A DNA stretch of 32,000 nucleotides from Dickeya solani IPO 2222 (GCF_001644705.1 NZ_CP015137.1:3090001-3122000), one strand, 5' to 3'. Numbered from the stretch's first letter, positions 737 to 18,236 are shown. Numbers and translations are program-made. The notes: generated by a model not told the origin, from the letters alone.

Positions 737-2380
737 TCAACCGCAGCTGGTGCATTTCTGCGACTGGATCACCTGGAAGAAGTCGTTGCCCTTGTCATCC
801 ACCAGAATGAAGGCCGGGAAGTCTTCCACTTCGATTTTCCAGATAGCTTCCATACCCAGTTCCGGGTATTCCACGCATTCCAGACTCTTGATGCTGTTCT
901 GCGCCAGAATCGCCGCCGGGCCGCCGATGCTGCCGAGGTAGAAACCGCCGTGTTTATTACAGGCGTCGGTCACCTGCTGGCTGCGGTTGCCCTTGGCCAG
1001 CATGATCATGCTGCCGCCGTGGGATTGCAGCAGATCAACGTAGGAGTCCATGCGGCCAGCGGTGGTGGGGCCGAGTGAACCGGAGGCATAGCCTTCCGGC
1101 GTTTTGGCCGGGCCGGCGTAGTAGATCGGATGATCTTTCACGTATTGCGGCAGCTCGCCGCCGTTATCCAGCAGCTCTTTCAGCTTGGCGTGCGCGATGT
1201 CGCGCGCCACGATGATGGTGCCGTTGAGCGACAGGCGGGTGGAAACCGGGTACTGCGACAGCGTCTTGAGAATGTCGGCCATCGGGCGGTTCAGGTCGAT
1301 GCGCAACACTTCGCCTTCGCCAGCCTGACGCAAGTGCTCCGGAATGTATTTGCCGGGGTTGGTTTCCAACTGTTCCAGCCAGATACCCTGACGGTTAATC
1401 TTGGCCTTGATGTTGCGGTCCGCCGAGCAAGACACGCCCATGCCGATCGGGCAAGAAGCGCCATGACGCGGCAGACGGATCACGCGCACATCGTGGGCGA
1501 AGTATTTGCCGCCGAATTGGGCGCCGAGCCCCAGATTGCGGGCTTCCTCCAGCAATTCCTGCTCCAGCGCCACATCGCGGAACGCCTGACCATGCTCGTT
1601 GCCTTCGGTCGGCAGCTGGTCATAGTAGCGGGTGGAGGCCAGTTTGGCGGTTTTCAGGTTGGTTTCCGCCGAGGTGCCGCCGATGACGAACGCAATGTGG
1701 TACGGCGGGCAGGCCGCGGTACCCAGCGTACGCATTTTTTCCACCAGATAGTTGGTCAGCTTGCCCGGCGACAGCAGCGCTTTGGTTTCCTGATACAGGT
1801 AGGTCTTGTTGGCGGAACCGCCGCCTTTGGTGACGAACAGGAATTTGTACTCATCGCCTTCGGTGCTGTAGAGGTCGATCTGCGCCGGCAGGTTGGTGCC
1901 GGTGTTGACCTCTTTGTACATGTCCAGCGCCGCGTTCTGAGAATAGCGCAGGTTGTCTTCGATAAAGGTGTTGTACACCCCGCGCGACAGCGCTTCGGCA
2001 TCGTTGCCGCCGGTCCACACGCGTTGGCCTTTTTTGCCGACGATGATGGCGGTGCCGGTGTCCTGACAGGTGGGCAGGATGCCTTTGGCGGCGATTTCGG
2101 AGTTACGCAGGAACTGCAGAGCGACATAACGGTCGTTTTCGCTGGCTTCCGGGTCGAGGAGGATATCGGCGACCTGTTGCTGGTGGGAAGGGCGCAGCAG
2201 GAAAGAGGCATCGTGGAATGCCTGCTGGGCCAACAGCGTCAGCCCCTGCGGGTCGACTTTGAGAATATCCTGGCCTTCAAACTGGCTAACGGAAACAAAA
2301 TCGCTGCTTATTAAACGATATTCGGTTTTATCCTTCGCTAATGGAAACGGATCTTGGTAATAGAACGGTTTATTCGACAT
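737..2380 (-). CDS. fumB: Class I (Fe-S, oxygen-labile) fumarate hydratase
   Basis: The ORF 737-2575 is trimmed to the ATG at 2380 ([14 protein letters not shown]...), giving 547 aa. It is near-colinear with E. coli FumA/FumB. Several segments ([37 protein letters not shown]) fit my recollection of FumB better than FumA. The choice of symbol between fumA and fumB is less certain than the family. Confidence 0.93.
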
Positions 2381-2827
2381 TTTCTTCTCACTTGCAGCCG
2401 CATAATGGAATGATTCATCGGGTCTTATTTTCCGTCTAGGCTTTTGTGCCGGTCTTATTGTTGTATCCATCGTTGTTGTGTCAATCGTCTCGGGCACGAC
2501 GACAAAAGCAATAAACGTCGGTTGATATTCCTTAATTTGCGCCAGTGCCGCGCCCCTTGAGGGATACCACCTCACATACTATGGCTTTATGACGGGGAGT
2601 ACCACGCCAACAAGTCACATTATTTTTATCTCCGTCATGTTTTCGTTGAAAATATATCTCCGACAGAAACGTGATGCTGTTGCCGGCAAAATGATCCCTG
2701 GGTGCGTCATATTAAGTCATTTATTTAAGTTAATTAAGTGAGATAAACGGCAACGGTATATCCATTAAATAAATAAGGTTTATTGATTACCTAATTAAAT
2801 TGCACATCCGGTTTCACAAGCGGATAT

Positions 2828-3694
2828 TCATTCGCGCTGTTCTAACAGGGTATCGATCAACCACAGCCCTGCCGGGCCGGGAGGGAACGGGCGCGACCAG
2901 GCGATGTCCACCTCAATCTGCCGCGGCCAGCCGGGCAACGCCAGCTCTATCAGTCGGTTCCGCGCGTATTCGTCCACCAGCCAGCGCGGCAGAATGCTCC
3001 AGCCAAATCCTTGTTCCGCCATTTCCAGCAGCATCAGGTACGACGGCGTCGACCAGGTGGCGCCTTCCGACTGCGGCCGTTCCCGCTGGCTATAGGTGTG
3101 AAGGCACAGCTGACGCGCCGTGGCGAGCTGTTCCTGGGTCACCGGCGTGTGTTGTGCCAGCGGGTGGCTGCGGGCCACGTAGATCGCCATTTCGGTTTTC
3201 ACCTGTAGCCGGGATACCGCGATATCGATGGGGTAATGCGCCTGTGCCTGCAACACGCCGACATGGGCGCGCTGCGATTGCAGCAGGTCCACCACGTCCT
3301 CGTCTTCCGCAATCAGACACTCGAACTCCACATCAGGAAAACGCTCGGCGAAGCGCTGCATCACCGGATAGTAGTGGCGGCACTGCCAGGTGTCCGACAG
3401 CACAAAGGTCAGCCGCGGCTCCACCTTGTCCGCCAGCCGGATCGCCAGTTCGTCCAGCGCCTCGCTGGCGGACAGAATGGCTTTGACGTGGCTGAGCACC
3501 TTGCGTCCTTCGTCGGTCAGCGCCGGCTGATGGCCGCGTCTGTCGAACAACGTCAGGCCCAGATCCGCTTCCAGATTCGCCACTGCCGTACTGACGGTGG
3601 ACTGGCTTTTTTGCAGGTGACGGGCCGCCGCGGAAAAAGAACCGGTATTCACGGTGGCGATGAACGCCAGCAGGGATTCGGGAGAATAACGCAT
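2828..3694 (-). CDS. LysR-family transcriptional regulator, divergent from the PACE transporter (AceR-like arrangement)
   Basis: N-terminal wHTH SFSAAARHLQKSQSTVSTAVANLEADLG followed by a LysR substrate-binding domain. The ORF-track start at 3736 is a GTG. The ATG at 3694 (MRYSPESLLAFIA) gives the usual LysR N-terminus. Confidence 0.85.
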   Translation of the reverse strand: MRYSPESLLAFIATVNTGSFSAAARHLQKSQSTVSTAVANLEADLGLTLFDRRGHQPALTDEGRKVLSHVKAILSASEALDELAIRLADKVEPRLTFVLSDTWQCRHYYPVMQRFAERFPDVEFECLIAEDEDVVDLLQSQRAHVGVLQAQAHYPIDIAVSRLQVKTEMAIYVARSHPLAQHTPVTQEQLATARQLCLHTYSQRERPQSEGATWSTPSYLMLLEMAEQGFGWSILPRWLVDEYARNRLIELALPGWPRQIEVDIAWSRPFPPGPAGLWLIDTLLEQRE

Positions 3695-3800
3695 CGCTGT
3701 CTCTATCGCTTTTTTAGATGGAAACTCATTTAACACTATTGGTTATTTCGATGAGAATGGCAACCCGCAATCGCAGTCATGCAGGCTGAAGGAGGAAAAC

Positions 3801-4265
3801 ATGCAACAGCAAATCCAGCAGAAAGCGCGTCATGAACAAAAAACACTCCGTGAACGGATGGCGCATGCCATCGGTTTCGAGGTGATGGCGTTACTGATTT
3901 GCGCCCCGATCGGCGCCTGGGTGCTCGGGCGCTCGATCTTACAGGTCGGCGCGCTGTCGATAATGCTATCCAGCGTGGCGATGATCTGGAACGTGGTGTA
4001 CAACAGCCAGTTTGATCGCCTGTGGCCGGTCAGCCGTGTCAGACGGGGTCTGTGGGTGCGTATGGGACACGCGCTGGGTTTCGAAGGCGGCTTTATCCTC
4101 ATTGGCTTGCCGCTGGCGGCGTGGATGTTGAATATCACCCTGTGGCAGGCGCTGATGGTGGAGATCGGCTTCTTCCTGTTCTTCCTGCCGTATACCATGG
4201 CCTACAACTGGTTGTACGACCTGTTGCGCGAACGGCTGCTGGCGACCGCGGTACCAGGGCGCTAG
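3801..4265 (+). CDS. PACE-family (AceI-like, two BTP domains) small efflux transporter
   Basis: 154 aa with four predicted TM segments arranged as an internal duplication. Each half opens with the family motif R-x-x-H-A-x-G-F-E (RERMAHAIGFEV and WVRMGHALGFEG). AGGAGG sits 6 nt upstream of the ATG. Confidence 0.8.
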   Translation: MQQQIQQKARHEQKTLRERMAHAIGFEVMALLICAPIGAWVLGRSILQVGALSIMLSSVAMIWNVVYNSQFDRLWPVSRVRRGLWVRMGHALGFEGGFILIGLPLAAWMLNITLWQALMVEIGFFLFFLPYTMAYNWLYDLLRERLLATAVPGR

Positions 4266-4350: not shown

Positions 4351-5025
4351 TTACTGACGCAGCGAGGCCCGGTACTCGGCGTAATCCGGCATATGGGGAA
4401 TACGCCACAGATACCAGGCGGCCAGCGTGCGGTAAGGGCGGCAGGCTTCGCTCATCTCCAGCATCGCTTTACGCGTCGGGTCTTGCGGCAGGCGGTACAG
4501 GTAACGAAACCCCTGTTTGATGCCGAGGTCGTCCACCGGCATGATGTCCATCCGCTCCAGCGTGGAGATCAGCAGCATTTCCACCGTCCAGCGGCCGATA
4601 CCTTTCAGCGTGCAAAGCCGTTCGATCAACGTCTCGTCATCCACATGTTCTGCCTCCGCCCGGCTCGGCACCAGCCCATTCTGCACACCCTGAGCAATCC
4701 CTTTGACCGTGTCGATTTTGCGGGCGGAAAAGCCGCACTGGCGCAAGGCTTCCGGTTCGCATGCCGTCAGTTGATCGGCGGAGGGAAAACCGTTTTCACC
4801 CACGGCAAATCGTTGCTGCAGTTTGTTGATGATGGCCGCGGCGGCGCGGTTGCTGAGCTGCTGGCTGGCGACCGCCCGAATCAGCGCGTCGTAAGGTTCC
4901 CTTGCCGGGCGGCTTTCAAAACGAATATGGCCGATGCCGTCGATCAACCGCGCCCAGTGCGCGTCAATGGCGGCCAGATGGGCGAGAGCCTGGGGTTCGT
5001 CGAACGGGAGCGGTGGTGTGGTCAT
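4351..5025 (-). CDS. DNA-3-methyladenine glycosylase II family protein (short AlkA-like, HhH-GPD)
   Basis: 224 aa with an HhH-GPD signature (LKGIGRWTVEMLLISTLERMDIMPVDDLGI, including the catalytic-type Asp). It lacks the N-terminal domain of 282-aa E. coli AlkA. Confidence 0.8.
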   Translation of the reverse strand: MTTPPLPFDEPQALAHLAAIDAHWARLIDGIGHIRFESRPAREPYDALIRAVASQQLSNRAAAAIINKLQQRFAVGENGFPSADQLTACEPEALRQCGFSARKIDTVKGIAQGVQNGLVPSRAEAEHVDDETLIERLCTLKGIGRWTVEMLLISTLERMDIMPVDDLGIKQGFRYLYRLPQDPTRKAMLEMSEACRPYRTLAAWYLWRIPHMPDYAEYRASLRQ

Positions 5026-5120
5026 TCTGCGGCATCCTTATTTTTGTGATTGAACGGGCAAGGCAACGCTTCGCTAACAAGGTATACTGAATAGTACTGG
5101 TTGCTTGAACAGGTGTCTGC

Positions 5121-5774
5121 ATGAATTTCGAACTGTTTGCCGATGAGCCGCCGGAACGCCGCAATGAAACGCTGGCGCCCGGCGCCATGCTGCTGCGCGG
5201 CTTTGCCTGGCAACAGGCCGGTGAATTGCTGGCCGGGCTGGCACAGGTGACGCAGCGGTCGCCGTTTCGTCACATGGTGACGCCGGGCGGGCATACCATG
5301 TCGGTGGCGATGAGTAACTGCGGGCCGCTGGGCTGGGTGAGCGACGAACTGGGATATCGCTACAGCGCTCAGGATCCGCTGACCGGCCAGCCGTGGCCCG
5401 CCATGCCGGCCTGCTTTTGGCAACTGTCACAGGCGGCGGCTCGCGAGGCTGGGTATGACGGTTTTGCGCCGGATGCCTGCCTGATTAACCGGTACGCGCC
5501 GGGAGCCAAACTGTCGTTGCATCAGGACAAGGACGAGCAGGACTTGCGCCAGCCGATCGTCTCCGTCTCGCTGGGGTTAAGCGCGGTGTTTCTGTTTGGC
5601 GGGGAAAAACGCAGCGACCCGTGCCAGCGGTTGGCGCTGATGCATGGCGATGTGGTGGTGTGGGGCGGCGCTTCCCGGCTGTATTACCACGCCATTTTGC
5701 CGCTCAAAAACGGACCGCTGCCGGCGGGAATGTCGGATGAGGTTCGCTTTAATCTAACGTTTCGTAAAGTGTGA
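5121..5774 (+). CDS. alkB: Fe(II)/2-oxoglutarate-dependent DNA/RNA alkylation repair dioxygenase AlkB
   Basis: Colinear with E. coli AlkB (SPFRHMVTPGGHTMSVAMSNCG, ACLINRYAPGAKLSLHQDKDE, VVVWGG.SRL.YH, RFNLTFR). AGGTG lies 5 nt upstream of the ATG. Confidence 0.95.
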   Translation: MNFELFADEPPERRNETLAPGAMLLRGFAWQQAGELLAGLAQVTQRSPFRHMVTPGGHTMSVAMSNCGPLGWVSDELGYRYSAQDPLTGQPWPAMPACFWQLSQAAAREAGYDGFAPDACLINRYAPGAKLSLHQDKDEQDLRQPIVSVSLGLSAVFLFGGEKRSDPCQRLALMHGDVVVWGGASRLYYHAILPLKNGPLPAGMSDEVRFNLTFRKV

Positions 5775-5806: not shown

Positions 5807-7369
5807 TTACTTTTTGGTGAAATGGAGATAATCGAGGGCGTTTTCTGCCGCCATGCGACCTGAGTTGAGCGCAAAGCCGAAGGTGCCGCCGCCCAGCAGC
5901 AGATCGTAGGTGTCGCCGTACATGCCGGCGGCGTCATTACCGGTGACGTACAGCCCCGGCACTGCATTGCCTGCCGGCGATATCGCTTCCATCTTCTCGT
6001 TGATCTTCACGCCGCCCAGTGTGCCGAGCGCGGCCGGCAGCATTTTCACCGCGTAGAAAGGACCGGTTTTCATCGGGCGCAGGTAGTCCATGTTCTTGTT
6101 GAACACCTCGTCCCGTTTCTGTGCGGCGAAGCGGTTGTTTTCGTCAACGGTGTGTTTTAACACGCTGGCGTCGACGCCCATCTGTTTCGCCAACTCGTCC
6201 AGCGTGGCGGCCTTGAACACAAAGCCGCGGTTTTTCTGGCTCTCTTTGGTGAACTCATCATCGAATTTCACCAGCTTGGTGTTGGCGATCACCCATTCGC
6301 CGATCGGCACATCGATGCCGTCGTTGACGAAGTGTTTGCGGGCGTCTTCGTCAAACACCGAATACATCACCCCACCGGCTTTAGCCAGCGCGTTGCCGGC
6401 GTGTGGCCAGATGATGACGATGGATTCATCGGTGAAACGGCGGCCGTGTTGATCTATCCACAGATAAGGCTGACGAGCGGCGGCCAGCAACTGAGAGTTA
6501 GGCGCATAGTCCGGCAGGCCGGGGCGGTAGGACTGTACGACGCCCATGCCGTCCTCTTTGGCCCCGGCTTTCCACGCCATTTTGATGCCGTCGCCGTCTT
6601 TACCGACGTTGCCCACCATGATGGTGTCCGGCACCGCCACGTATTTCTGCAGCATCTCCTTATTGTTGGCGTAACCGCCGGTGGCGATGATCACCGCTTT
6701 GGCGTCGATCTGGAACGGTTTGCCGTCGCTGCCTTCGGCGATCACCCCGGCGACTTTGCCGTCCTTCATCACCAGATCTTTACCGGCGGTTTTCACCAGC
6801 GTGGTGACCGGCATGGTTTTGAACTGTTCGTGGAAGGTTTTTATCAGGTAGCGACCGTGGCCGGGGCCGTCGATCACGTGCCAGGTCAACATCCCGCCCG
6901 GTCCGCCGGGGCCGATATATTCAAACTTGATGCCTTTGGATTTGACCCACTCGATGGTGTCGGCGGAGCGGTTGACGAAGGCGCGCACCACAAACGGGTT
7001 CGCCATCCAGTGGCTGTATTCCATGATGGTTTTGAACGCCATGTCCGGCGTTACTACGATGCCCTGACGTTTCTGCATGGTGCTGTTGGCGGCGAAAATG
7101 CCTTCGGCGAAGTTGCCGGTGCCGCCGACTACGCCCTGTTTTTCCAGCAATACGACGCTGGCGCCTTTCTCGGCCGCCGCCATGGTGGCGGCGGTGCCGG
7201 CCGCCCCTGCGCCGATGATCACCACGTCAGCGCTTTTGGGGATCGCCGCCGGTTTGGCCGGTTCCGCGTTGGCGGCGGGTTGCGGTGCCGCCTGCTCCGC
7301 GTAGGCGGAGGTCATCCCCAGCATCGACAGGCACAGGGCGGCAAGGATTGTTCTTCGGTATTGAGCCAT
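5807..7369 (-). CDS. Exported FAD-dependent oxidoreductase, FAD_binding_2 family (flavocytochrome-c fumarate reductase, urocanate reductase or acrylate reductase type); substrate unknown
   Basis: The N-terminus MAQYRRTILAALCLSMLGMTSAYA|EQ looks like a Tat-type signal. A Pro/Ala linker follows, then the dinucleotide fold VVIIGAGAAGTAATMAAAEKGASVVLLEK and a C-terminal GLYVTGNDAAG...GGGTFGFALNSGRMAA. No heme-binding CxxCH motifs are present. Confidence 0.85.
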   Translation of the reverse strand: MAQYRRTILAALCLSMLGMTSAYAEQAAPQPAANAEPAKPAAIPKSADVVIIGAGAAGTAATMAAAEKGASVVLLEKQGVVGGTGNFAEGIFAANSTMQKRQGIVVTPDMAFKTIMEYSHWMANPFVVRAFVNRSADTIEWVKSKGIKFEYIGPGGPGGMLTWHVIDGPGHGRYLIKTFHEQFKTMPVTTLVKTAGKDLVMKDGKVAGVIAEGSDGKPFQIDAKAVIIATGGYANNKEMLQKYVAVPDTIMVGNVGKDGDGIKMAWKAGAKEDGMGVVQSYRPGLPDYAPNSQLLAAARQPYLWIDQHGRRFTDESIVIIWPHAGNALAKAGGVMYSVFDEDARKHFVNDGIDVPIGEWVIANTKLVKFDDEFTKESQKNRGFVFKAATLDELAKQMGVDASVLKHTVDENNRFAAQKRDEVFNKNMDYLRPMKTGPFYAVKMLPAALGTLGGVKINEKMEAISPAGNAVPGLYVTGNDAAGMYGDTYDLLLGGGTFGFALNSGRMAAENALDYLHFTKK

Positions 7370-7452
7370 CTTGTTTTCCTTTTATCGTTTTCACAAATAT
7401 CGTTCTCACGAAATAACACACGGCAAACCGGGCGGCGCCCGGCCGTCATGAA

Positions 7453-7803
7453 TCAGTGCTGGCGGGCTTTTTCGTACGCCTCTTGCGCGGCGTCATGCAC
7501 TGCGCCGCTGGTCATGGTGGCGCCGGAGACGCCATCGACATTGATGGTCTTTTTCTCGGTCATGGTTTTCTCCAGCTCTTTGGCCGCTTCGCCGCCCACT
7601 TCCGGCGTTTCCGACGGGGCGTCGATGCTGGCCTTGTTGACCGTGCCGTTGGCATCCACTTCAAGGGTGACGGTCACGTCGCCGCCGATGCCCTGCTTAC
7701 TGGATGAGTAGGTGCCGGCCTTGAACTGACCGCCTTCCGCCAACGCAACGGTGCTGGCGGTGATAAGCAGGCAACTGAGTAATGTGGCTGAACTTCTCTT
7801 CAT
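7453..7803 (-). CDS. Secreted FMN_bind-domain protein with an ApbE-type covalent flavinylation motif
   Basis: 116 aa with a Sec-type signal (MKRSSATLLSCLLITASTVALA|EGG). The motif DGVSGATMTSG matches the D-x-x-S-G-A-T flavinylation site known from NqrC, RnfG and extracytosolic reductases. Confidence 0.8.
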   Translation of the reverse strand: MKRSSATLLSCLLITASTVALAEGGQFKAGTYSSSKQGIGGDVTVTLEVDANGTVNKASIDAPSETPEVGGEAAKELEKTMTEKKTINVDGVSGATMTSGAVHDAAQEAYEKARQH

Positions 7804-7864
7804 AACGTGATTTCACTCTTTTGATTAACGGAATGTTGATTAATAAAAAATACTGGCCGCCCGG

Positions 7865-9244
7865 TCAGGGAGCGGGCGACAGCAATACGTTCCCATCCTC
7901 GTGACCGAGATGACGAAACAGCAGGCAACTCAGCGCCAGACCGACCCCGAGCAGCGCAAACAGCAGGCTGAACGGGCTGATGTGCAGCCACGGCGACAGC
8001 CGCGATAGCACCCGCAGCGCCGGAAAGGTCAGCGCCATGCTCAGCATCACCGCCAGCAGTTGGCTGAGCAGCAGGATGTTGTTGCCGCTGTTGCAGGTGT
8101 CGTTTTCTAGGTGGCAGCAGGCGAGCGTGCTTTCCGCCGAGTGCAGTAGCGCCGTCAGCACGCCGAGCAGGCCGGACAGCGCGCCGATGCACGGTAGCGA
8201 CCGGTGCTGAATGGCGGCGCCGAGCGCCAGCACCGCGATTGCCGCCAGCAGCGTGGCGGCAATCAGCAACTGGCGATAACCGGCGCGGCGCACCAGCGGC
8301 TCAAACAGCAGCTTGGCGAGCAGGGCGCCGGCGGAAAACAGCAGCATGATGATCCCGGCGGTGGCCGGCGTCAGGCCCAGCGCGGTCTGGATCACCAGCG
8401 AGATCACCACCGGGAGTGACGCCAGCAACAGCCGGGTCAGCACGCCGCCCCACACGCCGACATAAAAGGTGCGAATGCCGAACAGCGAGGCGGGCAGCAG
8501 CGCCTCGCGCACCCGGCGATCGCCGCGCAGATACAACCAGCCGCAGCCGCTGCCCGCCAGCGCAATCAGCGTCAACGCCGGTAGCGGCAGCAGGCGTTTG
8601 GGGGCGGCGACCAGCAGCAACGCGAGCAATAACAGCGCGGTGGTCAGCAGCAGCAGGCTGCGCAGCGGAATACGGCGCGGCGACGGCGTGACGCCATCAG
8701 GAATGGCGTCCCCGGCTAGCCACAGGCACAGCAATGACAGCGGAATGGGGGCGAGAAAAATCGCGCGCCAGCCGAAGGCATCGGTCAGCAAGCTACCCGC
8801 CAGCGGGCCGGTCAGGGTGCCGAGCAGGCCGAGCAGCGTCATACGGTTAAGAAAGGACAGTTTCTGCGCGGGGGGGGTGACGCGCAGCGCCTGAGTGCGG
8901 AGCACCGGCAGCAACAATGCCCCGCCGATGCCTTGCAGGCAGCGGCAGATCGCCAGCGTGGCGGCCGACGTGGCCTGGTTGCACAGCAGCGCGCCGGCGA
9001 TGAACGTCAGCAGCGCCAGCTGGCAGGTGCGCCGTTCCCCCATCCGCTGGCTCAGCCAGCTGTTGAGCGGGGTGAATGCCACCACGGCGACCAGGTAAGC
9101 CATCACCACCGGCTCCATGCGCAGTACCGGCTCGCGCAGCGTATGCGCCATCGCCGGAACGGCGACATACAGCATGGTGGTGTCCAGCGATTGCATGAAA
9201 AACGCCACCGACGCCAGCCAGAATAACGCGCGCGAGCCGGCCAT
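7865..9244 (-). CDS. MFS transporter, DHA2 (14-TMS) type, MdtD-like
   Basis: 459 aa. The N-terminal FFMQSLDTTMLYVAVPAMA and LQGIGGALLLP motifs resemble E. coli MdtD/EmrB-type MFS proteins. The protein is hydrophobic throughout. The start ATG lies 2 nt after the nrfD-like stop. Confidence 0.85.
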   Translation of the reverse strand: MAGSRALFWLASVAFFMQSLDTTMLYVAVPAMAHTLREPVLRMEPVVMAYLVAVVAFTPLNSWLSQRMGERRTCQLALLTFIAGALLCNQATSAATLAICRCLQGIGGALLLPVLRTQALRVTPPAQKLSFLNRMTLLGLLGTLTGPLAGSLLTDAFGWRAIFLAPIPLSLLCLWLAGDAIPDGVTPSPRRIPLRSLLLLTTALLLLALLLVAAPKRLLPLPALTLIALAGSGCGWLYLRGDRRVREALLPASLFGIRTFYVGVWGGVLTRLLLASLPVVISLVIQTALGLTPATAGIIMLLFSAGALLAKLLFEPLVRRAGYRQLLIAATLLAAIAVLALGAAIQHRSLPCIGALSGLLGVLTALLHSAESTLACCHLENDTCNSGNNILLLSQLLAVMLSMALTFPALRVLSRLSPWLHISPFSLLFALLGVGLALSCLLFRHLGHEDGNVLLSPAP

Positions 9245-9246
9245 GA

Positions 9247-10203
9247 TCAGGCCACCGTCATCTGTCCGGCGTACAGCACGAACAGTCGCAGCAGGAATAC
9301 GCCCAGCAGCGTCAGGCCGGCGGCGATCCGCGGCAGAGACGTGACATGACGCCGCATGGCGGGCAGGCTACCCGCCGCCAGCGGCGCCAGCATGCCGATG
9401 CCGATAATACCGATCCAAAACACGCCGCCCCAGAACCCGCTCAGCGCCACCTGCGCCGCCACCGCTTTCTGCCCACCGCCGAGTAGCAAACCGATAAAGA
9501 AGGCGAACAGCAGGAACAGTTCGATCAGTGCGACCGGTTTTTCCAGTTTGTGCAGCAGATGCAGGGTATGCGGACAGTCACGATGGCTGCGCGCCGATGC
9601 GCCGACCATCATCAGCACCGCGATGCCGGAGGTCACGCCAGACACCAGAAACAGCACCGGTAGCACCGGGTTATTCAGCAACGGGAAAGATTTCAACGCT
9701 GAGAGCAGAAAACCGGTATAACAGCCGAGCAGCAACGCCAGCACCAGCAGCAGATTTTCCACCGGACGTATACTGCGGGTCACCAGCGCGATCACCCGGT
9801 TTAGCAAACCGCACAGGGCACCCGGCAACTGGCGTTCGCTCCAGGCCAGCAGCGGTTGCTGATACAGGCTGGCAATCCAGAGAAACATCACCAGCATGTA
9901 CACCTGAAACAGCATCACCCCCAGCGACATGATGGAACTGGGATTATAGAAAATCATCAGGTACCAGAAGGTGATAGGACGGGCGAGGTGGAAAATCAGG
10001 ATCACCAGCCCGACTATCACCGACAGCGGTGCAACGATCGCCGTGGCAGTAATCAACGGGTTGGCGTGTTGATTCTCCGCGGGCAGGTAGCGGCGAAACA
10101 GCAGCGTCAGTACCATCATCCCGGATGAGATCCCCACCAGCAGCAGGTACACGGCGATCGGCCAGTCCCACACCAGCGAGTGAAAATGAAAGGCGTCATG
10201 CAT
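9247..10203 (-). CDS. nrfD: NrfD-family integral membrane quinol dehydrogenase subunit
   Basis: 318 aa, the same length as E. coli NrfD and colinear with it (FHF.SLVWDWPIA.YL.L.GIS.G, YTGFLLSALKS.P.LNNP.LPVLFL.SG, LR.F.LYAGQ.TVA). The start overlaps the upstream stop in the sequence ATGCATGA. Confidence 0.9.
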   Translation of the reverse strand: MHDAFHFHSLVWDWPIAVYLLLVGISSGMMVLTLLFRRYLPAENQHANPLITATAIVAPLSVIVGLVILIFHLARPITFWYLMIFYNPSSIMSLGVMLFQVYMLVMFLWIASLYQQPLLAWSERQLPGALCGLLNRVIALVTRSIRPVENLLLVLALLLGCYTGFLLSALKSFPLLNNPVLPVLFLVSGVTSGIAVLMMVGASARSHRDCPHTLHLLHKLEKPVALIELFLLFAFFIGLLLGGGQKAVAAQVALSGFWGGVFWIGIIGIGMLAPLAAGSLPAMRRHVTSLPRIAAGLTLLGVFLLRLFVLYAGQMTVA

Positions 10204-10894
10204 GGTCGCTCTCTCCGTATTTACCGGGAATGCGGTAGAGGTTGGGGCCGGTGCCCAGATAGACTTTGCTGCGGTAGATCGGATTGCTTTTGATCATTTT
10301 CGAGATCTCGCTATCCGGGTCGTTGAGATCGCCGAACACCAGCGCTTTGGTCGGGCAGATTTCGACGCAGGCCGGTTTCTTACCCGCCGCCAGATTGGTT
10401 TCCCGGCAGAAGTTGCACTTGTCCGCGGTGTGGGTCATCGGGTTGATGAAGCGCACGTGGTACGGACAGGCGGCGATGCAGTAGCGGCAGCCGACGCAGC
10501 GCTTGTCGTTGACATCGACAATGCCGGTCAGCGCGTCTTTGAACGATGCGCCGGTCGGGCAGACCGATACGCAAGGCGGGTTATCGCAGTGCTGGCAGGA
10601 CTGGCGAAAAAACTGTTTGATCGGTTTACTGCTGTCGGTGGCCGGGATATCGACGGTTTGTATGATATCCAGCCGGGTGACGCCCTCCGGCACCTGATTG
10701 GTTTTGCGGCAGGCGGTCATGCAGGCTTTGCAGCCGATACAGCGTAGCTCGTTATGCAATATGCCGTATTTGACGGGGCGCGGGCCGGCGGCGGGCGTTG
10801 CCGTTTCCTGCGCGACCGCCGGCAGGCCGCTGCCGGAGACGGCCAGCGCGCTGCCCATGATGGCGATAAAACGGCGTCGGGTGTAATTTTCCAT
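10196..10894 (-). CDS. nrfC: Tat-exported 4x[4Fe-4S] ferredoxin-type subunit, NrfC-like
   Basis: The ORF is trimmed to the ATG at 10894 (MENYTRRRFIAIMGSALAVSG, a twin-arginine signal). It has four Cys clusters (CIGCKACMTAC, CQHCDNPPCVSVCP, CVGCRYCIAACP, CNFC...CVEICP) and is colinear with E. coli NrfC. AAGG lies about 9 nt upstream. Confidence 0.9.
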   Translation of the reverse strand: MENYTRRRFIAIMGSALAVSGSGLPAVAQETATPAAGPRPVKYGILHNELRCIGCKACMTACRKTNQVPEGVTRLDIIQTVDIPATDSSKPIKQFFRQSCQHCDNPPCVSVCPTGASFKDALTGIVDVNDKRCVGCRYCIAACPYHVRFINPMTHTADKCNFCRETNLAAGKKPACVEICPTKALVFGDLNDPDSEISKMIKSNPIYRSKVYLGTGPNLYRIPGKYGESDHA

Positions 10895-10943: not shown

Positions 10944-11019
10944 TTCAGCGATAACACTCGTGTTCAGTGATAAAGCTATTTTTCAGTGATAAAACCATTT
11001 TTCAGTGATAAAACTTTTT
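10944..11019. repeat. Four direct repeats with an exact 19-bp period upstream of the nrfC-like gene; candidate regulator binding array
   Basis: The units start at 10944, 10963, 10982 and 11001: TTCAGCGATAACACTCGTG, TTCAGTGATAAAGCTATTT, TTCAGTGATAAAACCATTT and TTCAGTGATAAAACTTTTT. The last three match 17/19 pairwise. The array lies 50-125 nt upstream of the ATG at 10894. Confidence 0.8.
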
Positions 11020-11372
11020 ATTTTCTTACTCATGGGTATTAATGAGCGCGATAAATAACGACAAAGCCCGTGTGTCGGGAAGTGAAACGTATTGGTGCGA
11101 ATAATTGGAACATGCGTACCTGGCGGGATATGTGGCACGCTTCACATTTAATTTTTTGTATATCCGGATAAAAATAATTGCAAAATACGATAACTGGTGT
11201 GGATAGGGCTATTATTGTCGTGATTTTCATTATTAATGTTATTTTTGTTGTTTGCTTGTGTTATTGAAATGTCTTTTTTGATTTGAGTAATAAAATCCTT
11301 TTTTGGCTAAAATGAATAAAAATGATGTGGCACAAAAATTAATCTTTCAGGTGAGTTATTTCGCCGAAAAAT

Positions 11373-11398
11373 AAAAAAACACCTCCAGCGAGGTGTTT
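11373..11398 (-). terminator. Rho-independent terminator of the esterase gene
   Basis: On the minus strand AAACACCTC-gctg-GAGGTGTTT is followed by TTTTTAT. It lies about 80 nt downstream of the stop at 11476. Confidence 0.75.
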
Positions 11399-11475
11399 CA
11401 GGTGTCTGACGAATCCGTTAAGTGCAACGCACAATACAACATGGCTGTTGGTTAACAGCTATGTTCATCAGCCGA

Positions 11476-12450
11476 TTATGGCTTCAACTGACGGTCCAAA
11501 AACTGAATCACTTTCTGCATGATTTCCGGTTGCAGCCAGTAAACGCCGCCATGCTCCGCGCCTTTCACCACGTAGTAGGTGCTGTCGATGCCGTGGGCTA
11601 CCAGCGCCCGGTGCAGGATTTCGGTCTGATGGGGGGAAACCAGCGTATCGGCGCTGCCATGCATGATCAAAAACGGCGGAGTCTGTTGGCCGATGTAGGT
11701 GATCGGGTTGGCGGCGGCGGTTTTCTCCGGGAAGCGGGTAATCGGGCCGCCTTCATTGAACACCGAGGTGCCGTTGACCCAGATGGCTTCGGTGGAGGAC
11801 GGCGAGGCGTGTTTCTGCACCACTTCGTCCGGGAAGCCTTCGCCGACGCGGGTCAGGTCCGACAGGCCGTAGAAATCGATCACCGCCTGTACCTGGCTGC
11901 TCTGGTCGAGGTGTTCGCCGCGGTCAAATTGCTTATTGCCGTTGGTGGTGCCGGCAAACGCCGCCAGATAGCCGCCGGCGGAAGCGCCGAACACCGCCAC
12001 ATGACCGGCGTCGATGCCGAATTTGCTCGCATTGGCGCGCAGGTAACGAATGGCGGATTTCACGTCTTCCAGCGGCGCCGGGAACAGCACGGTCGGCGCC
12101 ACGCGGTATTCCATGCTGGCGACCACGTAGCCGGCTTCCGCCAGTTTCAGCCGCTGCTGGATGTAGCTGTCTTTATTGGCGTTGATGAAACCGCCGCCGG
12201 TGATGAACAGCACGGCGGGCTGCGGTGATTTCGCCTCCGGTTGCAGGATGTCCATCTTCAATGCCACGTTGGGGTAGCCGCGCATCGGCACCTGGGCGTA
12301 AACCACGTCGGAAATCAGTTTAACCGACGGCTGGCGCGGGGTGAGAGTCAGTTCATGGATGTTGTCTGCGGCCATGGCGCTTGTTACCTGTGCGGCTCCG
12401 GTAATCGTAACGGCGGATAACAGTATCATTTTTAGCGGGAGGGTACGCAT
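11476..12450 (-). CDS. Secreted alpha/beta hydrolase, esterase of the HSL/BD-FAE type; candidate feruloyl or acetyl esterase
   Basis: 324 aa. Signal peptide MRTLPLKMILLSAVTITGAAQVTSAMA|AD, oxyanion-type TGGGF, nucleophile elbow GASAGG, and C-terminal MHGSADTLV and GAEHG. AAGGA lies 7-8 nt upstream of the ATG. Confidence 0.85.
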   Translation of the reverse strand: MRTLPLKMILLSAVTITGAAQVTSAMAADNIHELTLTPRQPSVKLISDVVYAQVPMRGYPNVALKMDILQPEAKSPQPAVLFITGGGFINANKDSYIQQRLKLAEAGYVVASMEYRVAPTVLFPAPLEDVKSAIRYLRANASKFGIDAGHVAVFGASAGGYLAAFAGTTNGNKQFDRGEHLDQSSQVQAVIDFYGLSDLTRVGEGFPDEVVQKHASPSSTEAIWVNGTSVFNEGGPITRFPEKTAAANPITYIGQQTPPFLIMHGSADTLVSPHQTEILHRALVAHGIDSTYYVVKGAEHGGVYWLQPEIMQKVIQFLDRQLKP

Positions 12451-12624
12451 GAAGTATTCCTTAAAATTATTATTTAGCCGATGCTTGTCGTATCAATACA
12501 GGAAGGAAAAAATCAGGAGGCAGGCTATCACGGCTGGGATTAATACAAATGTGCTTAATCTCACATTAGTATTTTTGTAAATTCATATAATTATTATTCG
12601 TTAAGGTTATAAATAAATATAATC

Positions 12625-13527
12625 ATGATAAGTATAAAACGTGCACTTTATTACCATGAGCTGGTGCGTAAAGGGAGTTTTACCCGCGCGGCCAAATCAC
12701 TCAATATCTCACAGGCGTTTCTTTCCCAGGAAATATCCCGGCTGGAGCAGGAGCTGGAAAGGAAATTGATTAATCGCACTACCCGGCAATTTGCGTTGAC
12801 GCCATTCGGCGAAGCGTTTGACGACAAGATCAAACCGCTGATTCGGGAATATTATGACGTTGAACAATTTGTGCAATCGTACGAAGACAGTCAGGACGGC
12901 GCCCTGATGGTGGGGGTGATTCCGATCTTCAACCGGCTGAAATATTACGATGTCTTCACGCTGTTTCAAAAGCAGCATCCGAATATCGAACTGTCCTTTA
13001 TTGATGGCGTCAGCAGCGACCTGCTGGAAAAGGTCAGAAACGCCGAGATCCACGTGTCGCTCTCCACGCCGTTTGACGACTACCTGCAGGATCCGCTGTT
13101 TAACCACACCATCTTTCTGGACGACAATCTGGTGGCGGTGATGGCGGCCGACCATCCGCTGGCGGATCAACCGAGCCTGACGCTCAATCAACTGGCGCAG
13201 GAGCGGCCAATCGTGCCGCAGAAGGGCACCGGCGAGCATGCGGCGGTGTCGGCGGCGTTTAGCCGCGCCGGGCTGGAAGACACCTGCTTTCGGGAGTGCA
13301 GCAATCTCGACATCATTATGGATCTGGTGATGCATCACGGCGGGGTGGTGTTTCTGTGCACGTCGGTGGCGAGCAGTCTGAAGGGATACGATATCGTGAT
13401 TTGCCCGGTAGCGACGCCGATCACCCGCACCTTCGCGGTAAGTTACCTTAAACGTAGTGTTGGCATTCCGGTGGTGCGCCGCTTTCTGGATTTTATGGAG
13501 CGGCATCATCCGATGTTGCGTGGATAA
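12625..13527 (+). CDS. LysR-family transcriptional regulator, divergent from the esterase
   Basis: wHTH GSFTRAAKSLNISQAFLSQEISRLEQELERKLINR followed by a LysR effector domain. It shares a 174-bp AT-rich intergenic region with the esterase gene. Confidence 0.9.
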   Translation: MISIKRALYYHELVRKGSFTRAAKSLNISQAFLSQEISRLEQELERKLINRTTRQFALTPFGEAFDDKIKPLIREYYDVEQFVQSYEDSQDGALMVGVIPIFNRLKYYDVFTLFQKQHPNIELSFIDGVSSDLLEKVRNAEIHVSLSTPFDDYLQDPLFNHTIFLDDNLVAVMAADHPLADQPSLTLNQLAQERPIVPQKGTGEHAAVSAAFSRAGLEDTCFRECSNLDIIMDLVMHHGGVVFLCTSVASSLKGYDIVICPVATPITRTFAVSYLKRSVGIPVVRRFLDFMERHHPMLRG

Positions 13528-13689: not shown

Positions 13690-14676
13690 TTAACGCACGA
13701 TCAGCGTGGGTTCGATGCGGACGGTTTCCCCTTTCTGCGCCTCGCCGCTGAGCACCCGTTGCAGATGGCGCATGACCTGCGCCACCAACAGCTCCACCGG
13801 CTGGCGGACGGTGGTCAGCCGGTATCCTTCCCAGGCCGCCTGCGGGGTGTCGTCGCAGCCCACCACTTTGCATGCCGGGCCGCCGGTCAGGCGCAGAGCG
13901 TCAAGGGCGCCGAAGGCCAGTGCGTCACAGGCGCAGAACACGCCTTCGACCGCTGGATGCTGTTGCTGCAACCGGCACATGGCGTGATAGCCACTGTGGT
14001 AGGCGTAATCCGGATTATCCGTCACGACAGGCTCCGGCAGGCCACGATGGGCCAACTGCTGGCGAAAACCCGCCAGCCGCTCCAGCGAGGCCTGCCCGTC
14101 CTGACGACCGCCGATATAGGCCAGCCGGGTCAGCCCCAGCGAGATCAGGTGATCCGCCGCCAGCTCGCCCGCCAGCCGGTTATCGGACAGCACCGCGGTG
14201 ACGGTTTCGCGTTGATCCTCGCGGCCCATCAGCACCATCGGCAGCGACAGTTCCAGACAGCGGCCGGTGGCTTCCCGCGACAGGCTACCGGCGGAGATGA
14301 TCGCCGCTTCCACCTGCCACGACTGCGCCTGCTGCAACCGGGCGCGAATGTCGCACTGTTCGGTGACGCTGACCAGCATCGGCACCAGCCCGTGTTGTTG
14401 CAGCGCCTGAGTCAGCAGGCTGAACAGCCAGGGTTGGAACGGGTTGTCGAACTCGCCCATCACCACCGCCACGATGCCGGAGCCGTGCCGCCCGGAATTG
14501 ACCAGCGCCCGCGCCAGCGCATTGGGGCGATAGCCCAGTTGATCCGCTGCCGCCAGCACTTTTGAGCGGGTCGCCTGACTGACTTTGCCCGGCGCGGAAT
14601 AGGTGCGTGATACCGCCGATGCCGAAACGCCGGCGCAGCGGGCGACATCAATCGAGGTGATGCGTTTCTTATTCAT
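13690..14676 (-). CDS. LacI-family transcriptional repressor, last gene of the ABC operon
   Basis: The ORF is trimmed to the ATG at 14676 (MNKKRITSIDVARCAGVSASAVSRTYS), which gives a LacI HTH followed by a periplasmic-binding-protein fold, 328 aa. The start overlaps the upstream stop in ATGAATAA. AGGGGG serves as the SD. Confidence 0.9.
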   Translation of the reverse strand: MNKKRITSIDVARCAGVSASAVSRTYSAPGKVSQATRSKVLAAADQLGYRPNALARALVNSGRHGSGIVAVVMGEFDNPFQPWLFSLLTQALQQHGLVPMLVSVTEQCDIRARLQQAQSWQVEAAIISAGSLSREATGRCLELSLPMVLMGREDQRETVTAVLSDNRLAGELAADHLISLGLTRLAYIGGRQDGQASLERLAGFRQQLAHRGLPEPVVTDNPDYAYHSGYHAMCRLQQQHPAVEGVFCACDALAFGALDALRLTGGPACKVVGCDDTPQAAWEGYRLTTVRQPVELLVAQVMRHLQRVLSGEAQKGETVRIEPTLIVR

Positions 14677-15436
14677 GTTCTGGCCCCCTGATGATGTGCC
14701 AGTGCCCGTTGCGGCATTGCGCCCGGTCGCCCTGTTCCGGCAGAAACACGTCGGGCGAGGTGGCGATAACCTGTTGCAGCGCCGCTTTTTGCGACTGTTG
14801 CACGTGGTACAGGCCCAACGGCGCGCCCGGTTTACGCGCCAGCGTCTGCACCTGCGGCCAGTTGCCGTGGTAGGCATTGTCCGCCGCCTGCGGCGAAAAA
14901 CACTCCACCAGCGCCAGATCCGAGCGTGCCAGTAACGCGGCGCCCGCGGGCGTCAACTGGCCGTCGCCGCTGTAGAACAGCGACCCCTGTTCGCCGTCGA
15001 GCCACAGGGAACGGTTGGGCACCGAGTGGCGGGTCGGCGCGGTCTGGCAATGCCACGGGCCCAGTTCGTTCAGGCTTTCGCTGTCCTGCCAGTTAAGGGT
15101 AAACAGCGGCCGACCGGCGGGCCAGAAGGCGAAATCCGCCAGACGCTGCACCTGCGGCAATTGCTGACGCGGCGCGATAATCGCCAGCGGCGCGGTGCGC
15201 CCGCAGGATTCGCACCAGTTGAGCCAGGTGGTCAGACCGAGCACGTGGTCGGGGTGAGCATGGGTAATGTAGATGGCGTGAATGTCGTCCGGCGCGGTCT
15301 GGCGCTGCCACAGCGCCTGCGGTACGGTCGGACCGCAATCCACCAGCAACTGGAATCCGCCTTCGCTGACCCGTATCGCCGCGTTGACCCGCTGGCTGTC
15401 GTAGGCTTCGCCGCTGCCGAGAATCTCAAGCTCCAT
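14669..15436 (-). CDS. MBL-fold metallo-hydrolase (short RNase Z / PhnP-like architecture)
   Basis: 255 aa with the THAHPDH (HxHxDH) motif near residue 58 and downstream His/Asp ligand candidates. The start overlaps the 3' end of the ATPase gene by 11 nt. Confidence 0.85.
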   Translation of the reverse strand: MELEILGSGEAYDSQRVNAAIRVSEGGFQLLVDCGPTVPQALWQRQTAPDDIHAIYITHAHPDHVLGLTTWLNWCESCGRTAPLAIIAPRQQLPQVQRLADFAFWPAGRPLFTLNWQDSESLNELGPWHCQTAPTRHSVPNRSLWLDGEQGSLFYSGDGQLTPAGAALLARSDLALVECFSPQAADNAYHGNWPQVQTLARKPGAPLGLYHVQQSQKAALQQVIATSPDVFLPEQGDRAQCRNGHWHIIRGPEHE

Positions 15437-16514: not shown

Positions 16515-16523
16515 CTGCGAGTC

Positions 16524-17351
16524 CTATTTCTGGCTGACGGCGAAGCCGCGCAGCAAATAACGTTGAACAAAGCCCGCCACCAGCAGCACCGGCAGCGAAG
16601 ACAGCAGCCCGATGCCCATCAGTTCTCCCCAGTAGATCTGGTTTTCGGTCATGAAGTTGGCGATAAACAGCGGCAGCGTGAACTGCTGCGGGGTTTGCAG
16701 GAACAACAGGGCGAACAGAAATTCGTTCCACGCCATGATCAGGGTGAAGATCGCCGTGGCGACCAGACCGGGGGCGCACACCGGCAGCACGATGTAGCGC
16801 AGTCGTCGCCACAGCCCGGCGCCGTCCATCGCCGCGGCCTCTTCCAGCGACAGCGGCACGTCGCGGATAAAACTGAGCAGCATCCAGATGCAAAACGGCA
16901 GGGTATAGACCTGATAAGCCAGCATCAGCCCGGTCAGGCTGTTGAGCAGGTGCAGCGATTTGAGCAGCGAATAGAGTGGGATCGCCACTACCATTGGCGG
17001 CATCATCTTGATCAGCAGCACCAGCAGCAGGAACAGGCTGTCGAGCCGCGCCGGAAAACGGTGGCGCGCCAGCGTGTAGGCGGCCAGAAACCCGGTCAGC
17101 AGCGATAACGCCGTGGCGCCGGCGGCCACCCACAATGTATTAAACAGCCGTGCGCCGACGCCATTATTCAGCAGGCTTTTCAGGTGAGTGAGCGTCCACT
17201 GTTGCGGCCAGAACGGGCTGCTCAGGCTGGAGAATTCGGCGGTGGACTTAAACGCCGTCGCCACCATCCACAGGATCGGCAGGGTGAAAAACAGCAGCGC
17301 GACGGTCAGCGCCAGCGCACGCAGCGCCATCAGCCAGTAAGGGAGTCTCAT
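16524..17351 (-). CDS. Carbohydrate ABC transporter permease (MalG/UgpE-like)
   Basis: 275 aa, multi-TM, with the EAA loop EEAAAMDGAGLWRRLRYIVLP. The start overlaps the upstream stop in ATGA. Confidence 0.9.
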   Translation of the reverse strand: MRLPYWLMALRALALTVALLFFTLPILWMVATAFKSTAEFSSLSSPFWPQQWTLTHLKSLLNNGVGARLFNTLWVAAGATALSLLTGFLAAYTLARHRFPARLDSLFLLLVLLIKMMPPMVVAIPLYSLLKSLHLLNSLTGLMLAYQVYTLPFCIWMLLSFIRDVPLSLEEAAAMDGAGLWRRLRYIVLPVCAPGLVATAIFTLIMAWNEFLFALLFLQTPQQFTLPLFIANFMTENQIYWGELMGIGLLSSLPVLLVAGFVQRYLLRGFAVSQK

Positions 17352-18220: not shown

Positions 18221-18236
18221 GGGATGTCCTTGAATG

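Follow-up and report, generated by a model that had tools for sequence, protein, structure and literature searches.

A putative quinol-dependent periplasmic flavin reductase operon in Dickeya solani, with an NrfC-NrfD pair of a lineage separate from nrf operons and a conserved MFS transporter

A cluster of five minus-strand genes was analysed at positions 5807–10894 of a 32,000-nucleotide stretch of the Dickeya solani IPO 2222 genome (GCF_001644705.1, NZ_CP015137.1:3090001–3122000; the whole stretch is referred to here as the window). The genes encode an NrfC-like ferredoxin, an NrfD-like membrane subunit, a major facilitator superfamily (MFS) transporter, a small exported protein with a flavin mononucleotide (FMN)-binding FMN_bind domain and an exported flavoprotein with a flavin adenine dinucleotide (FAD)-binding FAD_binding_2 domain. 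With confidence a little better than even, we favour the reading that this operon encodes a quinol-dependent periplasmic flavin reductase, that the MFS protein is part of the module and that a hydroxycinnamate is the likeliest substrate. The partners of the NrfCD-MFS module include at least four reductases that are not orthologous to one another, the gene order takes four forms, one of them with a haem relay, and the NrfC and NrfD sequences of the module are phylogenetically distinct from those of nitrite reductase operons.

The open reading frame (ORF) listing of the window recovered all five co-directional genes at the expected coordinates, and the domains given to them in the initial annotation were backed by Pfam and NCBIfam profiles. 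In transcriptional order these are nrfC (10196–10894, 232 aa from the ATG at 10894, four Cys clusters), nrfD (9247–10203, 318 aa, PF03916 E=2e-84), the gene of a DHA2-type MFS transporter (7865–9244, 459 aa, MFS_1 domain), the FMN_bind gene (7453–7803, 116 aa, PF04205 E=1e-14, motif DGVSGATMTS) and the FAD_binding_2 flavoprotein gene (5807–7369, 520 aa, PF00890 E=1e-60). The ORF coordinates bear out the coupling of the first three genes described previously, with an overlap of 8 nt between nrfC and nrfD and a gap of 2 nt between nrfD and the MFS gene, followed by gaps of 61 nt (MFS/FMN_bind) and 83 nt (FMN_bind/flavoprotein). A GC-rich hairpin with a weak T-tail lies across the MFS stop codon (7857–7875, minus strand), ahead of the 61-nt gap, and could tune the ratio of membrane to soluble components. 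The MFS, FMN_bind and flavoprotein sequences, together with those of a neighbouring esterase and a LysR-family regulator, are exact matches to D. solani proteins ANE76239–ANE76244. The MFS and nrfD genes (8001–10000) stand out in composition (GC 0.685 in 8001–9000, AT skew +0.31), which is probably due to minus-strand coding for membrane proteins rich in Leu and Ala and not to foreign origin, and a megablast search of E. coli genomes with the locus returned no match.

NrfD scored 407 bits against TIGR03148 (cut-off 347.6) and is colinear with the profile over positions 2–316 of 316, as expected from its previous description as an NrfD-like subunit of 318 aa. NrfC scored 330.6 bits against TIGR03149, under the cut-off of 377.6, and also matched Fer4_11 and further 4Fe-4S Pfam families; its description as a 4x[4Fe-4S] protein exported by the twin-arginine translocation (Tat) pathway is supported by the four Cys clusters and by a twin-arginine motif (TRRRFI in the window protein, SRRRF kept in orthologues). 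The true start of nrfC is placed at 10894 because every orthologue begins ME(N/E/D)... at that ATG. An NrfD/PsrC-type membrane subunit is hence paired with a periplasmic 4x[4Fe-4S] ferredoxin, with quinol binding as a prediction. A sequence search of solved structures gave no match for NrfD.

The relationship of this pair to nitrite reductase operons was assessed by scanning one genome per species for NrfD relatives and keeping the best 80 of 205 hits as loci, each of which was searched with the window proteins and for CxxCH motifs per ORF. The 80 loci fell into two classes with zero intermediates. The haem type (48 loci from Vibrio, Photobacterium, Serratia, Salmonella, Pragia and others) always contains an ORF of ~200 aa with five CxxCH motifs (NrfB; 48/48), and an NrfA ORF of 480–550 aa with four CxxCH motifs upstream of NrfC-NrfD is missing only at contig ends; an MFS or flavin gene was found in none of the 48. 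The flavin type (32 loci from Dickeya, Pectobacterium, Brenneria, Symbiopectobacterium, Edaphovirga, Sodalis and one metagenome-assembled genome (MAG)) has the MFS gene directly after NrfC-NrfD in 32/32 loci and FMN_bind plus FAD_binding_2 matches nearby in 27/32, and a CxxCH-rich ORF within 8 kb, whether NrfA or NrfB, in 0/32. The window itself has no ORF with more than one CxxCH, as the initial annotation had stated, its two single occurrences both lying in non-coding frames. Neighbour-joining trees of NrfC and of NrfD each recovered the same two reciprocally monophyletic groups (35 and 48 tips), with both window proteins in the clade of 35 flavin-context sequences, apart from the 48 operon-borne ones; window NrfD is 45–53% identical to NrfD from true nrfABCD operons. 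This shared split indicates that the flavin-type NrfC/NrfD pair is a distinct paralogous lineage. The alignments contain only 1 (NrfC) and 4 (NrfD) class-discriminating columns, which are uninformative for the partner-binding surface.

Outside Dickeya, the association between the NrfCD-MFS genes and a flavin reductase takes several forms. Pectobacterium has the same gene order as Dickeya, with a split FMN_bind/flavoprotein pair. In Phytobacter, the FMN_bind and flavoprotein genes are divergent from nrfC-nrfD-MFS, and their products share 32% and 37% identity with the window proteins. A Sec-exported FMN_bind-FAD_binding_2 fusion of 631–637 aa (636 aa in Sodalis; 33–36% identical) is encoded in Sodalis and a related MAG, directly upstream of nrfC-nrfD-MFS and beside a thiolase and a sigma-54 regulator, and the Sodalis genes share one orientation with gaps of at most ~150 nt. 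A haem-relay variant was found on an AT-rich contig (L090, Logan ERR11525762, 3630–9371), which carries genes for a LysR regulator, a 469-aa flavoprotein, a tetrahaem cytochrome c3, an NrfB-like pentahaem protein, NrfC, NrfD and an MFS of the same subfamily. Its flavoprotein is a Sec-exported FAD_binding_2 protein that keeps the equivalents of H504 and R545 of Shewanella Fcc3, and its NrfC has a VKTINT repeat in the signal region. In evolutionary terms, this locus seems to stand between NrfABCD and the version relying on flavins alone. Flavoprotein homologues from Shewanella avicenniae and Denitrovibrio (52–56% identical) adjoin a tetrahaem cytochrome of 115–116 aa, which stands at the place that FMN_bind has in Dickeya, a swap of the flavin/cytochrome type described for fumarate-reductase-like enzymes by Meheust et al. 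2021 (PMC8238504). The recurrence of the module with different reductases and in different gene orders supports a functional link between the NrfCD and flavin reductase halves.

The genus Brenneria departs from this pattern. Five of its members (roseae, populi, sp. hezel4-2-4, bubanii and alni) keep NrfC-NrfD-MFS with no adjacent reductase. Flavoprotein paralogues are encoded elsewhere, including a stand-alone one beside an OprD porin in B. populi and, in other Brenneria, an FMN_bind-FAD fusion adjoining a thiolase. Given these paralogues and the retention of the module without adjacent flavin genes, NrfC-NrfD-MFS may serve reductases in trans, as a hub. Brenneria and Acerihabitans hold several more paralogues (contigs L006 at 1395–3320 and 8001–9566, L007, and L171 at 7001–9806), adjoining OprB or OprD porins, an unannotated protein of ~363 aa, a thiolase, a CoA-transferase and an FMN_bind-FAD fusion of 641 aa; none has a quinol dehydrogenase nearby. 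These look like an enlarged periplasmic flavin-reductase repertoire in tree pathogens.

Two readings would deny that the operon is a working unit of the kind proposed. The cluster could be a decayed nrfABCDEFG operon stripped of nrfA and nrfB, in keeping with an NrfD score above the NCBIfam equivalog cut-off and the PGAP name 'cytochrome c nitrite reductase subunit NrfD'; however, intact canonical nrf loci coexist with it in the same genomes (both classes are present in Pectobacterium zantedeschiae, P. peruviense, Symbiopectobacterium and Edaphovirga, four species), the two kinds of NrfC and NrfD form separate monophyletic clades, and its genes are all full length and conserved across several Enterobacterales families. 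The coexisting loci and separate clades rule this reading out in practice, leaving it scarcely credible, and they answer the earlier concern that related genomes might carry nrfA and nrfB directly upstream, canonical nrfABCD being a separate paralogous locus there. It is also very unlikely that NrfCD-MFS and the FMN_bind/flavoprotein genes are mere neighbours, each with another partner or donor. The five Brenneria species without adjacent flavin genes, the flavoprotein paralogues of Brenneria and Acerihabitans with no NrfCD nearby, and the 61-nt and 83-nt gaps with a weak hairpin at the MFS/FMN_bind junction could all be taken that way, but the association recurs in four gene orders with mutually non-orthologous reductases, none of the flavin-type loci encodes another periplasmic redox partner, and the Sodalis genes lie close together in a single orientation. 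That the two halves might never co-occur elsewhere, a concern raised with the original description, is answered by the divergent pair of Phytobacter, the Sodalis fusion and the haem-relay variant.

The FMN_bind protein was recovered as previously described, as an exported protein of 116 aa whose ORF, PF04205 domain and DGVSGATMTS motif were all found. An N-terminal signal peptide can be read from its sequence, and the flavinylation motif D-x-x-[ST]-G-A-[ST] is kept in all 17 FMN_bind partners examined, including the 32%-identical protein of Phytobacter and the Sodalis fusion. We therefore predict a Sec-exported, covalently flavinylated, one-domain electron relay. The 520-aa exported flavoprotein is in turn predicted to be a terminal C=C reductase of the fumarate-reductase superfamily. 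Its signal peptide is short (~24 aa) and hydrophobic (MAQYRRTIL... in D. solani); the RR noted in the initial annotation is present here, but it is RK or RQ in most orthologues and is not a conserved Tat motif, so that export is probably by Sec rather than Tat.

The closest solved structures to the flavoprotein are Shewanella Fcc3 and UrdA. In phmmer alignments to 1JRZ and 1Q9I, Fcc3 residues H365, R402, H504 and R545 align to Y, I, G and L, the R402 position being confirmed by the sequence of an R402Y mutant in the same alignment, and the flavoprotein clade shares QSYRPG, ALGTLGG and YGD[ST]YDL at those sites. This replacement of the Fcc3 fumarate-binding and catalytic residues across the clade indicates that the protein is not a fumarate reductase. 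The best curated model for the flavoprotein is VprA, a vinyl phenol reductase (NF053717; 401.6 bits, cut-off 600). Most clade members score 344–371 bits and the Sodalis fusion 294, in very different contexts, and the model was dropped as a substrate indicator, since relatives from such contexts score nearly as well as the window protein and all remain below 600.

The MFS protein had been regarded as a bystander, a view that the survey overturns: it marks the module more faithfully than any other gene, being encoded directly after nrfD in 32/32 flavin-type versus 0/48 haem-type loci and also in L090, with the gap to nrfD no longer than ~27 nt in any of the 32 loci or in L090. Relatives at least 38% identical were found only beside NrfCD. 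In a metagenome scan the two close relatives (93% and 48% identical) adjoin NrfC/NrfD, and the remaining 78 (28–36% identical) have no NrfC/NrfD next door. The protein is full length, with 91 invariant columns across 13 sequences, and keeps the DHA2 motifs D-T-T in transmembrane helix 1, R-x-x-Q-G-x-G-G and G-P. Its earlier description as MdtD-like holds as far as the MFS_1 domain and these motifs go, but the MdtD model reaches only 192 bits against a cut-off of 426, and the sequence evidence points to a DHA2 member other than MdtD. Taken together, the distribution of the MFS indicates that it is a third, integral component of the module.

As to its role, the MFS tracks NrfCD while the reductase varies, and persists in the five Brenneria without an adjacent reductase; substrate-specific transport is unlikely because the MFS stays where the reductase changes or is gone. 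All flavoproteins of the module have short, hydrophobic, Sec-like signal peptides, as judged by eye. By comparison, Tat signals are carried by the stand-alone Mrd flavoprotein subunits (34–55 aa; PMC4427408 Table 1) and by the ArdA flavoprotein (bioRxiv 10.1101/2024.02.11.579808). A flavoprotein exported unfolded by Sec would have to acquire its FAD in the periplasm, and because every associated flavoprotein appears to be exported in this way, our best guess, put forward purely as a hypothesis, is that the MFS supplies FAD to that compartment.

From gene content and co-occurrence we infer an electron path that would begin with oxidation of (demethyl)menaquinol by the NrfD-like membrane protein and continue through the four [4Fe-4S] clusters of the Tat-exported NrfC-like protein into the periplasm. 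The Sec-exported 10-kDa FMN_bind protein, which would receive its covalent flavin from an ApbE whose gene lies elsewhere in the genome, would then relay the electrons to the FAD of the exported 52-kDa fumarate-reductase-superfamily flavoprotein, which would hydrogenate a C=C bond. The substrate would be ferulate or a related hydroxycinnamate freed from plant cell walls by the neighbouring esterase FaeD, and the MFS, translationally coupled to nrfD, would bring FAD to the periplasm. The chain from quinol through NrfD, NrfC and FMN to FAD was already part of the initial annotation, and the survey and the repeated co-occurrence lend it support.

A lead on the substrate that lay beyond the gene list of the initial annotation comes from two genes beside the operon. 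Upstream, at 11476–12450 on the minus strand, is a gene for a secreted alpha/beta-hydrolase esterase of 324 aa, which has a signal peptide and matches Abhydrolase_3 and the BD-FAE (bifunctional feruloyl/acetyl-xylan esterase) model (184 bits). It is followed by an intrinsic terminator (11376–11399, minus strand; 10-bp stem, then a T-run), from which we conclude that the esterase gene and the nrfC operon form separate transcripts. Exactly 14 genes separate the position of the esterase from that of a polysaccharide lyase family 4 (PL4) gene at 26714–28507, and in D. solani IPO2222 faeD is A4U42_13420 and rhiE A4U42_13490 (PMC8386352 supplement), a locus-tag spacing of 14 steps; the esterase is therefore the gene annotated faeD. 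The PL4 lyase (minus strand, domains II and III) is by the same positional argument rhiE, a rhamnogalacturonate lyase and Dickeya virulence enzyme. Divergent from faeD is a gene for a LysR-family regulator (12625–13527, plus strand, 300 aa, LysR models), which would be FaeR. A 2011 study by Hassan and Hugouvieux-Cotte-Pattat reportedly found FaeD to be a secreted feruloyl esterase whose induction by ferulate depends on the adjacent FaeR. The esterase and LysR genes are kept beside the cluster throughout Pectobacteriaceae (LysR 66–95% identical), and in Edaphovirga a 46%-identical LysR lies divergent beside nrfC with no esterase. The LysR protein is thus a candidate for control of the esterase gene and perhaps also of the reductase operon. 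A regulator shared with the haem-relay variant is not supported, the LysR of L090 being only 27% identical to that of the window.

The two promoter regions also share an element. The window has just two CRP-like sites, one at nrfC (11128–11149, ~244 nt upstream of the start codon) and one in the esterase/LysR intergenic region (12547–12568), and at both of them TACAAAAA stands exactly 6 nt before TGTGA, followed by N6 and CACAT, in a 33-nt composite (11128–11160 at nrfC, with TACAAAAA at 11160–11153 on the minus strand; 12547–12580 at faeD). The TGTGA-N6-CACA core upstream of nrfC is kept in Dickeya, Pectobacterium, Brenneria, Symbiopectobacterium, Phytobacter and Edaphovirga, and the TACAAAAA element ahead of it could be a LysR operator. 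Directly upstream of the nrfC start codon, at 10944–11019, are ~4 tandem copies of a 19–20-bp unit with the core TTATCACTGAA (minus strand). This array was considered as a response-regulator operator and rejected, as it is not found in other Dickeya (D. oryzae and D. undicola have a single copy of the unit) and represents a D. solani-specific duplication in the 5' leader.

The conserved adjacency of faeD and LysR and the composite motif common to both promoters are the grounds for the hydroxycinnamate lead. FaeD is a probable source of the substrate, and we put the chance that the substrate is ferulate or another hydroxycinnamate at roughly even. In Shewanella, the neighbours of a flavoprotein homologue include an OprD porin and two genes of the tannase/feruloyl-esterase family. 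The five Brenneria species that lack an adjacent reductase are also without the esterase-LysR block on the other flank, and in B. salicis and a related genome both the flavoprotein and the esterase genes are pseudogenised or fragmented, with FMN_bind intact. Such co-loss of two non-adjacent blocks (esterase plus LysR, and FMN_bind plus flavoprotein) hints that they work together.

Three further alternatives accept the module and differ from the preferred reading in direction, substrate or transporter role. Electrons could flow in reverse, from a periplasmic flavoprotein dehydrogenase through FMN_bind and NrfC to a quinone reduced at NrfD; the FAD_binding_2 superfamily does include dehydrogenases (weaker matches of the flavoprotein are TcuA, 3-ketosteroid dehydrogenases and succinate dehydrogenase), NrfD-family complexes are bidirectional, as illustrated by menaquinone reduction by Qrc (PMC8076601), and CRP-type control elements with no FNR site would suit a catabolic gene. 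The characterised periplasmic members nearest to the clade (Fcc3, UrdA, ArdAB, Mrd) are nevertheless all reductases, and the closest NrfCD relatives are quinol dehydrogenases, so that we consider reverse flow unlikely. A less improbable alternative, though one we still place on the unlikely side, keeps the same wiring with a substrate other than a hydroxycinnamate, that is, another 2-enoate or vinyl compound (acrylate, methacrylate, crotonate, itaconate, urocanate or 4-vinylphenols), faeD adjacency being inherited synteny. It draws on the characterised split relatives, which reduce acrylate and methacrylate (ArdAB) or methacrylate (Mrd/Mcc), on the vinyl phenol reductase as best curated model, on the replacement of the carboxylate-binding H504 and R545 of Fcc3, and on an esterase that is a separate transcript and is missing beside the Edaphovirga orthologue. 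Against it, two unrelated esterase families adjoin the clade in distant lineages (BD-FAE in Pectobacteriaceae, tannase/feruloyl esterase in Shewanella), the composite motif occurs in both the faeD and the nrfC promoter, and the clade is unlike Mrd/ArdA in both signal-peptide type and active-site signature. Finally, it is possible, at somewhat less than an even chance, that the MFS has a role other than cofactor supply, either as a substrate or product transporter (for example, phenolic acid efflux to the periplasmic reductase) or as a structural or ion-conducting partner of NrfD. Its conserved DHA2 motifs are typical of drug/H+ antiporters, its nearest named family is MdtD/EmrB efflux, and its gene is tightly coupled to nrfD in all genomes. 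The MFS stays with NrfCD, however, although the reductases of Dickeya, Phytobacter, Sodalis and L090 are only 28–38% identical and presumably differ in substrate, and it persists where no reductase is adjacent; these two points apply to a substrate role and not to a structural one.

Several observations weigh against the preferred reading of a quinol-dependent hydroxycinnamate reductase with its own FAD supply. A flavin transferase would be needed; no ApbE/Ftp domain was found in any annotated ORF of the window, as had been stated for apbE/ftp in the initial annotation; Enterobacterales generally encode ApbE for RnfG/RsxG. The distinction between Sec and Tat export was made by eye from the signal peptides, and we know of no MFS-type FAD exporter. 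No FNR-like site was found in the intergenic region upstream of nrfC, which is unexpected for an anaerobic respiratory operon, and the likeness to VprA, being clade-wide and always under 600 bits, says little about the substrate. The esterase is separately transcribed with its own terminator, is not encoded beside the Edaphovirga orthologue and is the sole loss in P. fontis. The adjacency of AlkB to the cluster is conserved to the same degree, so that synteny within Pectobacteriaceae proves little. To these must be added the five Brenneria species in which NrfC-NrfD-MFS has no adjacent reductase.

A wider reading, which we hold to be rather doubtful, is that NrfC-NrfD-MFS is a quinol-dehydrogenase hub for Sec-exported flavoprotein reductases, with the MFS as FAD exporter, used for ferulate or hydroxycinnamate respiration in Pectobacteriaceae. 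If true, an NrfD-family complex would for the first time have a flavoprotein as its catalytic partner, an MFS protein would for the first time be an FAD exporter, loading enzymes outside the cytoplasm, and a soft-rot pathogen would respire FaeD-released hydroxycinnamates in anoxic rotting tissue, removing phenolic acids with roles in plant defence and virulence signalling. More generally, flavoprotein reductases would join the partners of NrfD respiratory complexes, and periplasmic flavin reductases would gain a dedicated quinol dehydrogenase in Enterobacterales, which to our knowledge lack CymA-type donors. The presence of a conserved MFS may account for the loading of Sec-exported flavoproteins with FAD in the periplasm, and the question is raised whether plant hydroxycinnamates serve Dickeya and Pectobacterium as anaerobic electron acceptors during soft rot. 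There is also a consequence for annotation. The FMN_bind protein is named 'TonB family protein' in PGAP because a tonB_Cterm match passes its cut-off (29 bits, cut-off 27.1), and the NrfD-like protein bears its nitrite reductase name because TIGR03148 is passed. Where nrfD or nrfC is taken as a marker gene for nitrite ammonification, surveys will therefore count this unrelated system too.

The rest of the window encodes other functions. AlkB and an HhH-GPD glycosylase (4351–5774) flank the cluster; in Pectobacterium (contig L001, 9614–13243) an Ada methyltransferase/regulator and a Sua5-like gene lie between the two and are not there in D. solani. A PACE-family efflux transporter (206 bits, above the cut-off) and a divergent AceR-like LysR at 2828–4265 have the arrangement of the Acinetobacter chlorhexidine efflux system AceI/AceR. 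On the minus strand, 13690–19604 encodes a LacI-family regulator, an MBL-fold hydrolase with a weak Apyc1-like match (39 bits versus a cut-off of 50) and a sugar-type ATP-binding cassette uptake system consisting of a UgpC/MalK-like ATPase, two permeases and SBP_bac_1; the start of the LacI ORF, which overlaps the MBL gene, is probably over-extended.

Compared with known systems, the operon shares with NrfABCD of the E. coli type an NrfD of the 8-helix type, a Tat-exported 4x[4Fe-4S] NrfC and overlapping nrfC and nrfD genes, the window proteins being 45–58% identical to true NrfC and NrfD. It differs in having no NrfA, NrfB or haem-lyase gene, in its separate NrfCD clade, in an MFS gene that always follows nrfD and in periplasmic partners that are flavoproteins. 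The need for periplasmic FAD has a parallel in Shewanella, where the MATE flavin exporter Bfe supplies FAD for Sec-exported flavoproteins and ApbE; the transporter here belongs instead to the DHA2 group of the MFS, is encoded inside the reductase operon and has a hypothetical function. With Shewanella UrdA and Listeria FrdA the system has in common a covalent-FMN relay (ApbE motif) feeding an extracytosolic FAD_binding_2 domain, Sec-type export and flavin/cytochrome modularity (PMC8238504). Unlike in those enzymes, the two domains are separate proteins here (fused in the Sodalis variant), the fumarate- or urocanate-type active-site residues are not conserved, and the proposed donor is the periplasmic Fe-S protein NrfC on an NrfD quinol dehydrogenase, rather than the Shewanella cytochrome chain (UrdA) or the Listeria extracellular electron transfer pathway (FrdA; PMC8238504).

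Closest in layout are Mrd/Mcc of Geobacter and ArdAB of Shewanella woodyi, in which a periplasmic FAD flavoprotein of ~500 aa is encoded alongside a small separate carrier and acts as a respiratory 2-enoate reductase; the closest flavoprotein homologues, from Shewanella, Denitrovibrio and Geobacter, have the same layout. Here, by contrast, FMN_bind takes the place of the tetrahaem cytochrome as carrier, the flavoprotein signal is short and Sec-like instead of Tat-type (34–55 aa in Mrd, PMC4427408 Table 1), the active-site signature is QSYRPG / ALGTLGG / YGD[ST]YDL and a dedicated quinol dehydrogenase is encoded within the same operon. A review of the NrfD family names molybdoenzymes, multihaem cytochromes and hydrogenase as partners, and nowhere uses the words flavin, flavoprotein, MFS or transporter (PMC8076601); a survey of flavinylation covers FMN_bind-linked fumarate-reductase-like enzymes and several membrane donors, with 'Nrf' absent from the text (PMC8238504). 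No paper in the searched literature ties NrfCD to FMN-binding proteins or flavoprotein reductases, in agreement with the earlier remark that NrfCD is not a described electron input for two-component FMN_bind and FAD_binding_2 reductases. The components each come from known families, and it is their combination, in which NrfCD would feed a flavin relay and a flavoprotein in the company of an MFS transporter, that appears to be new.

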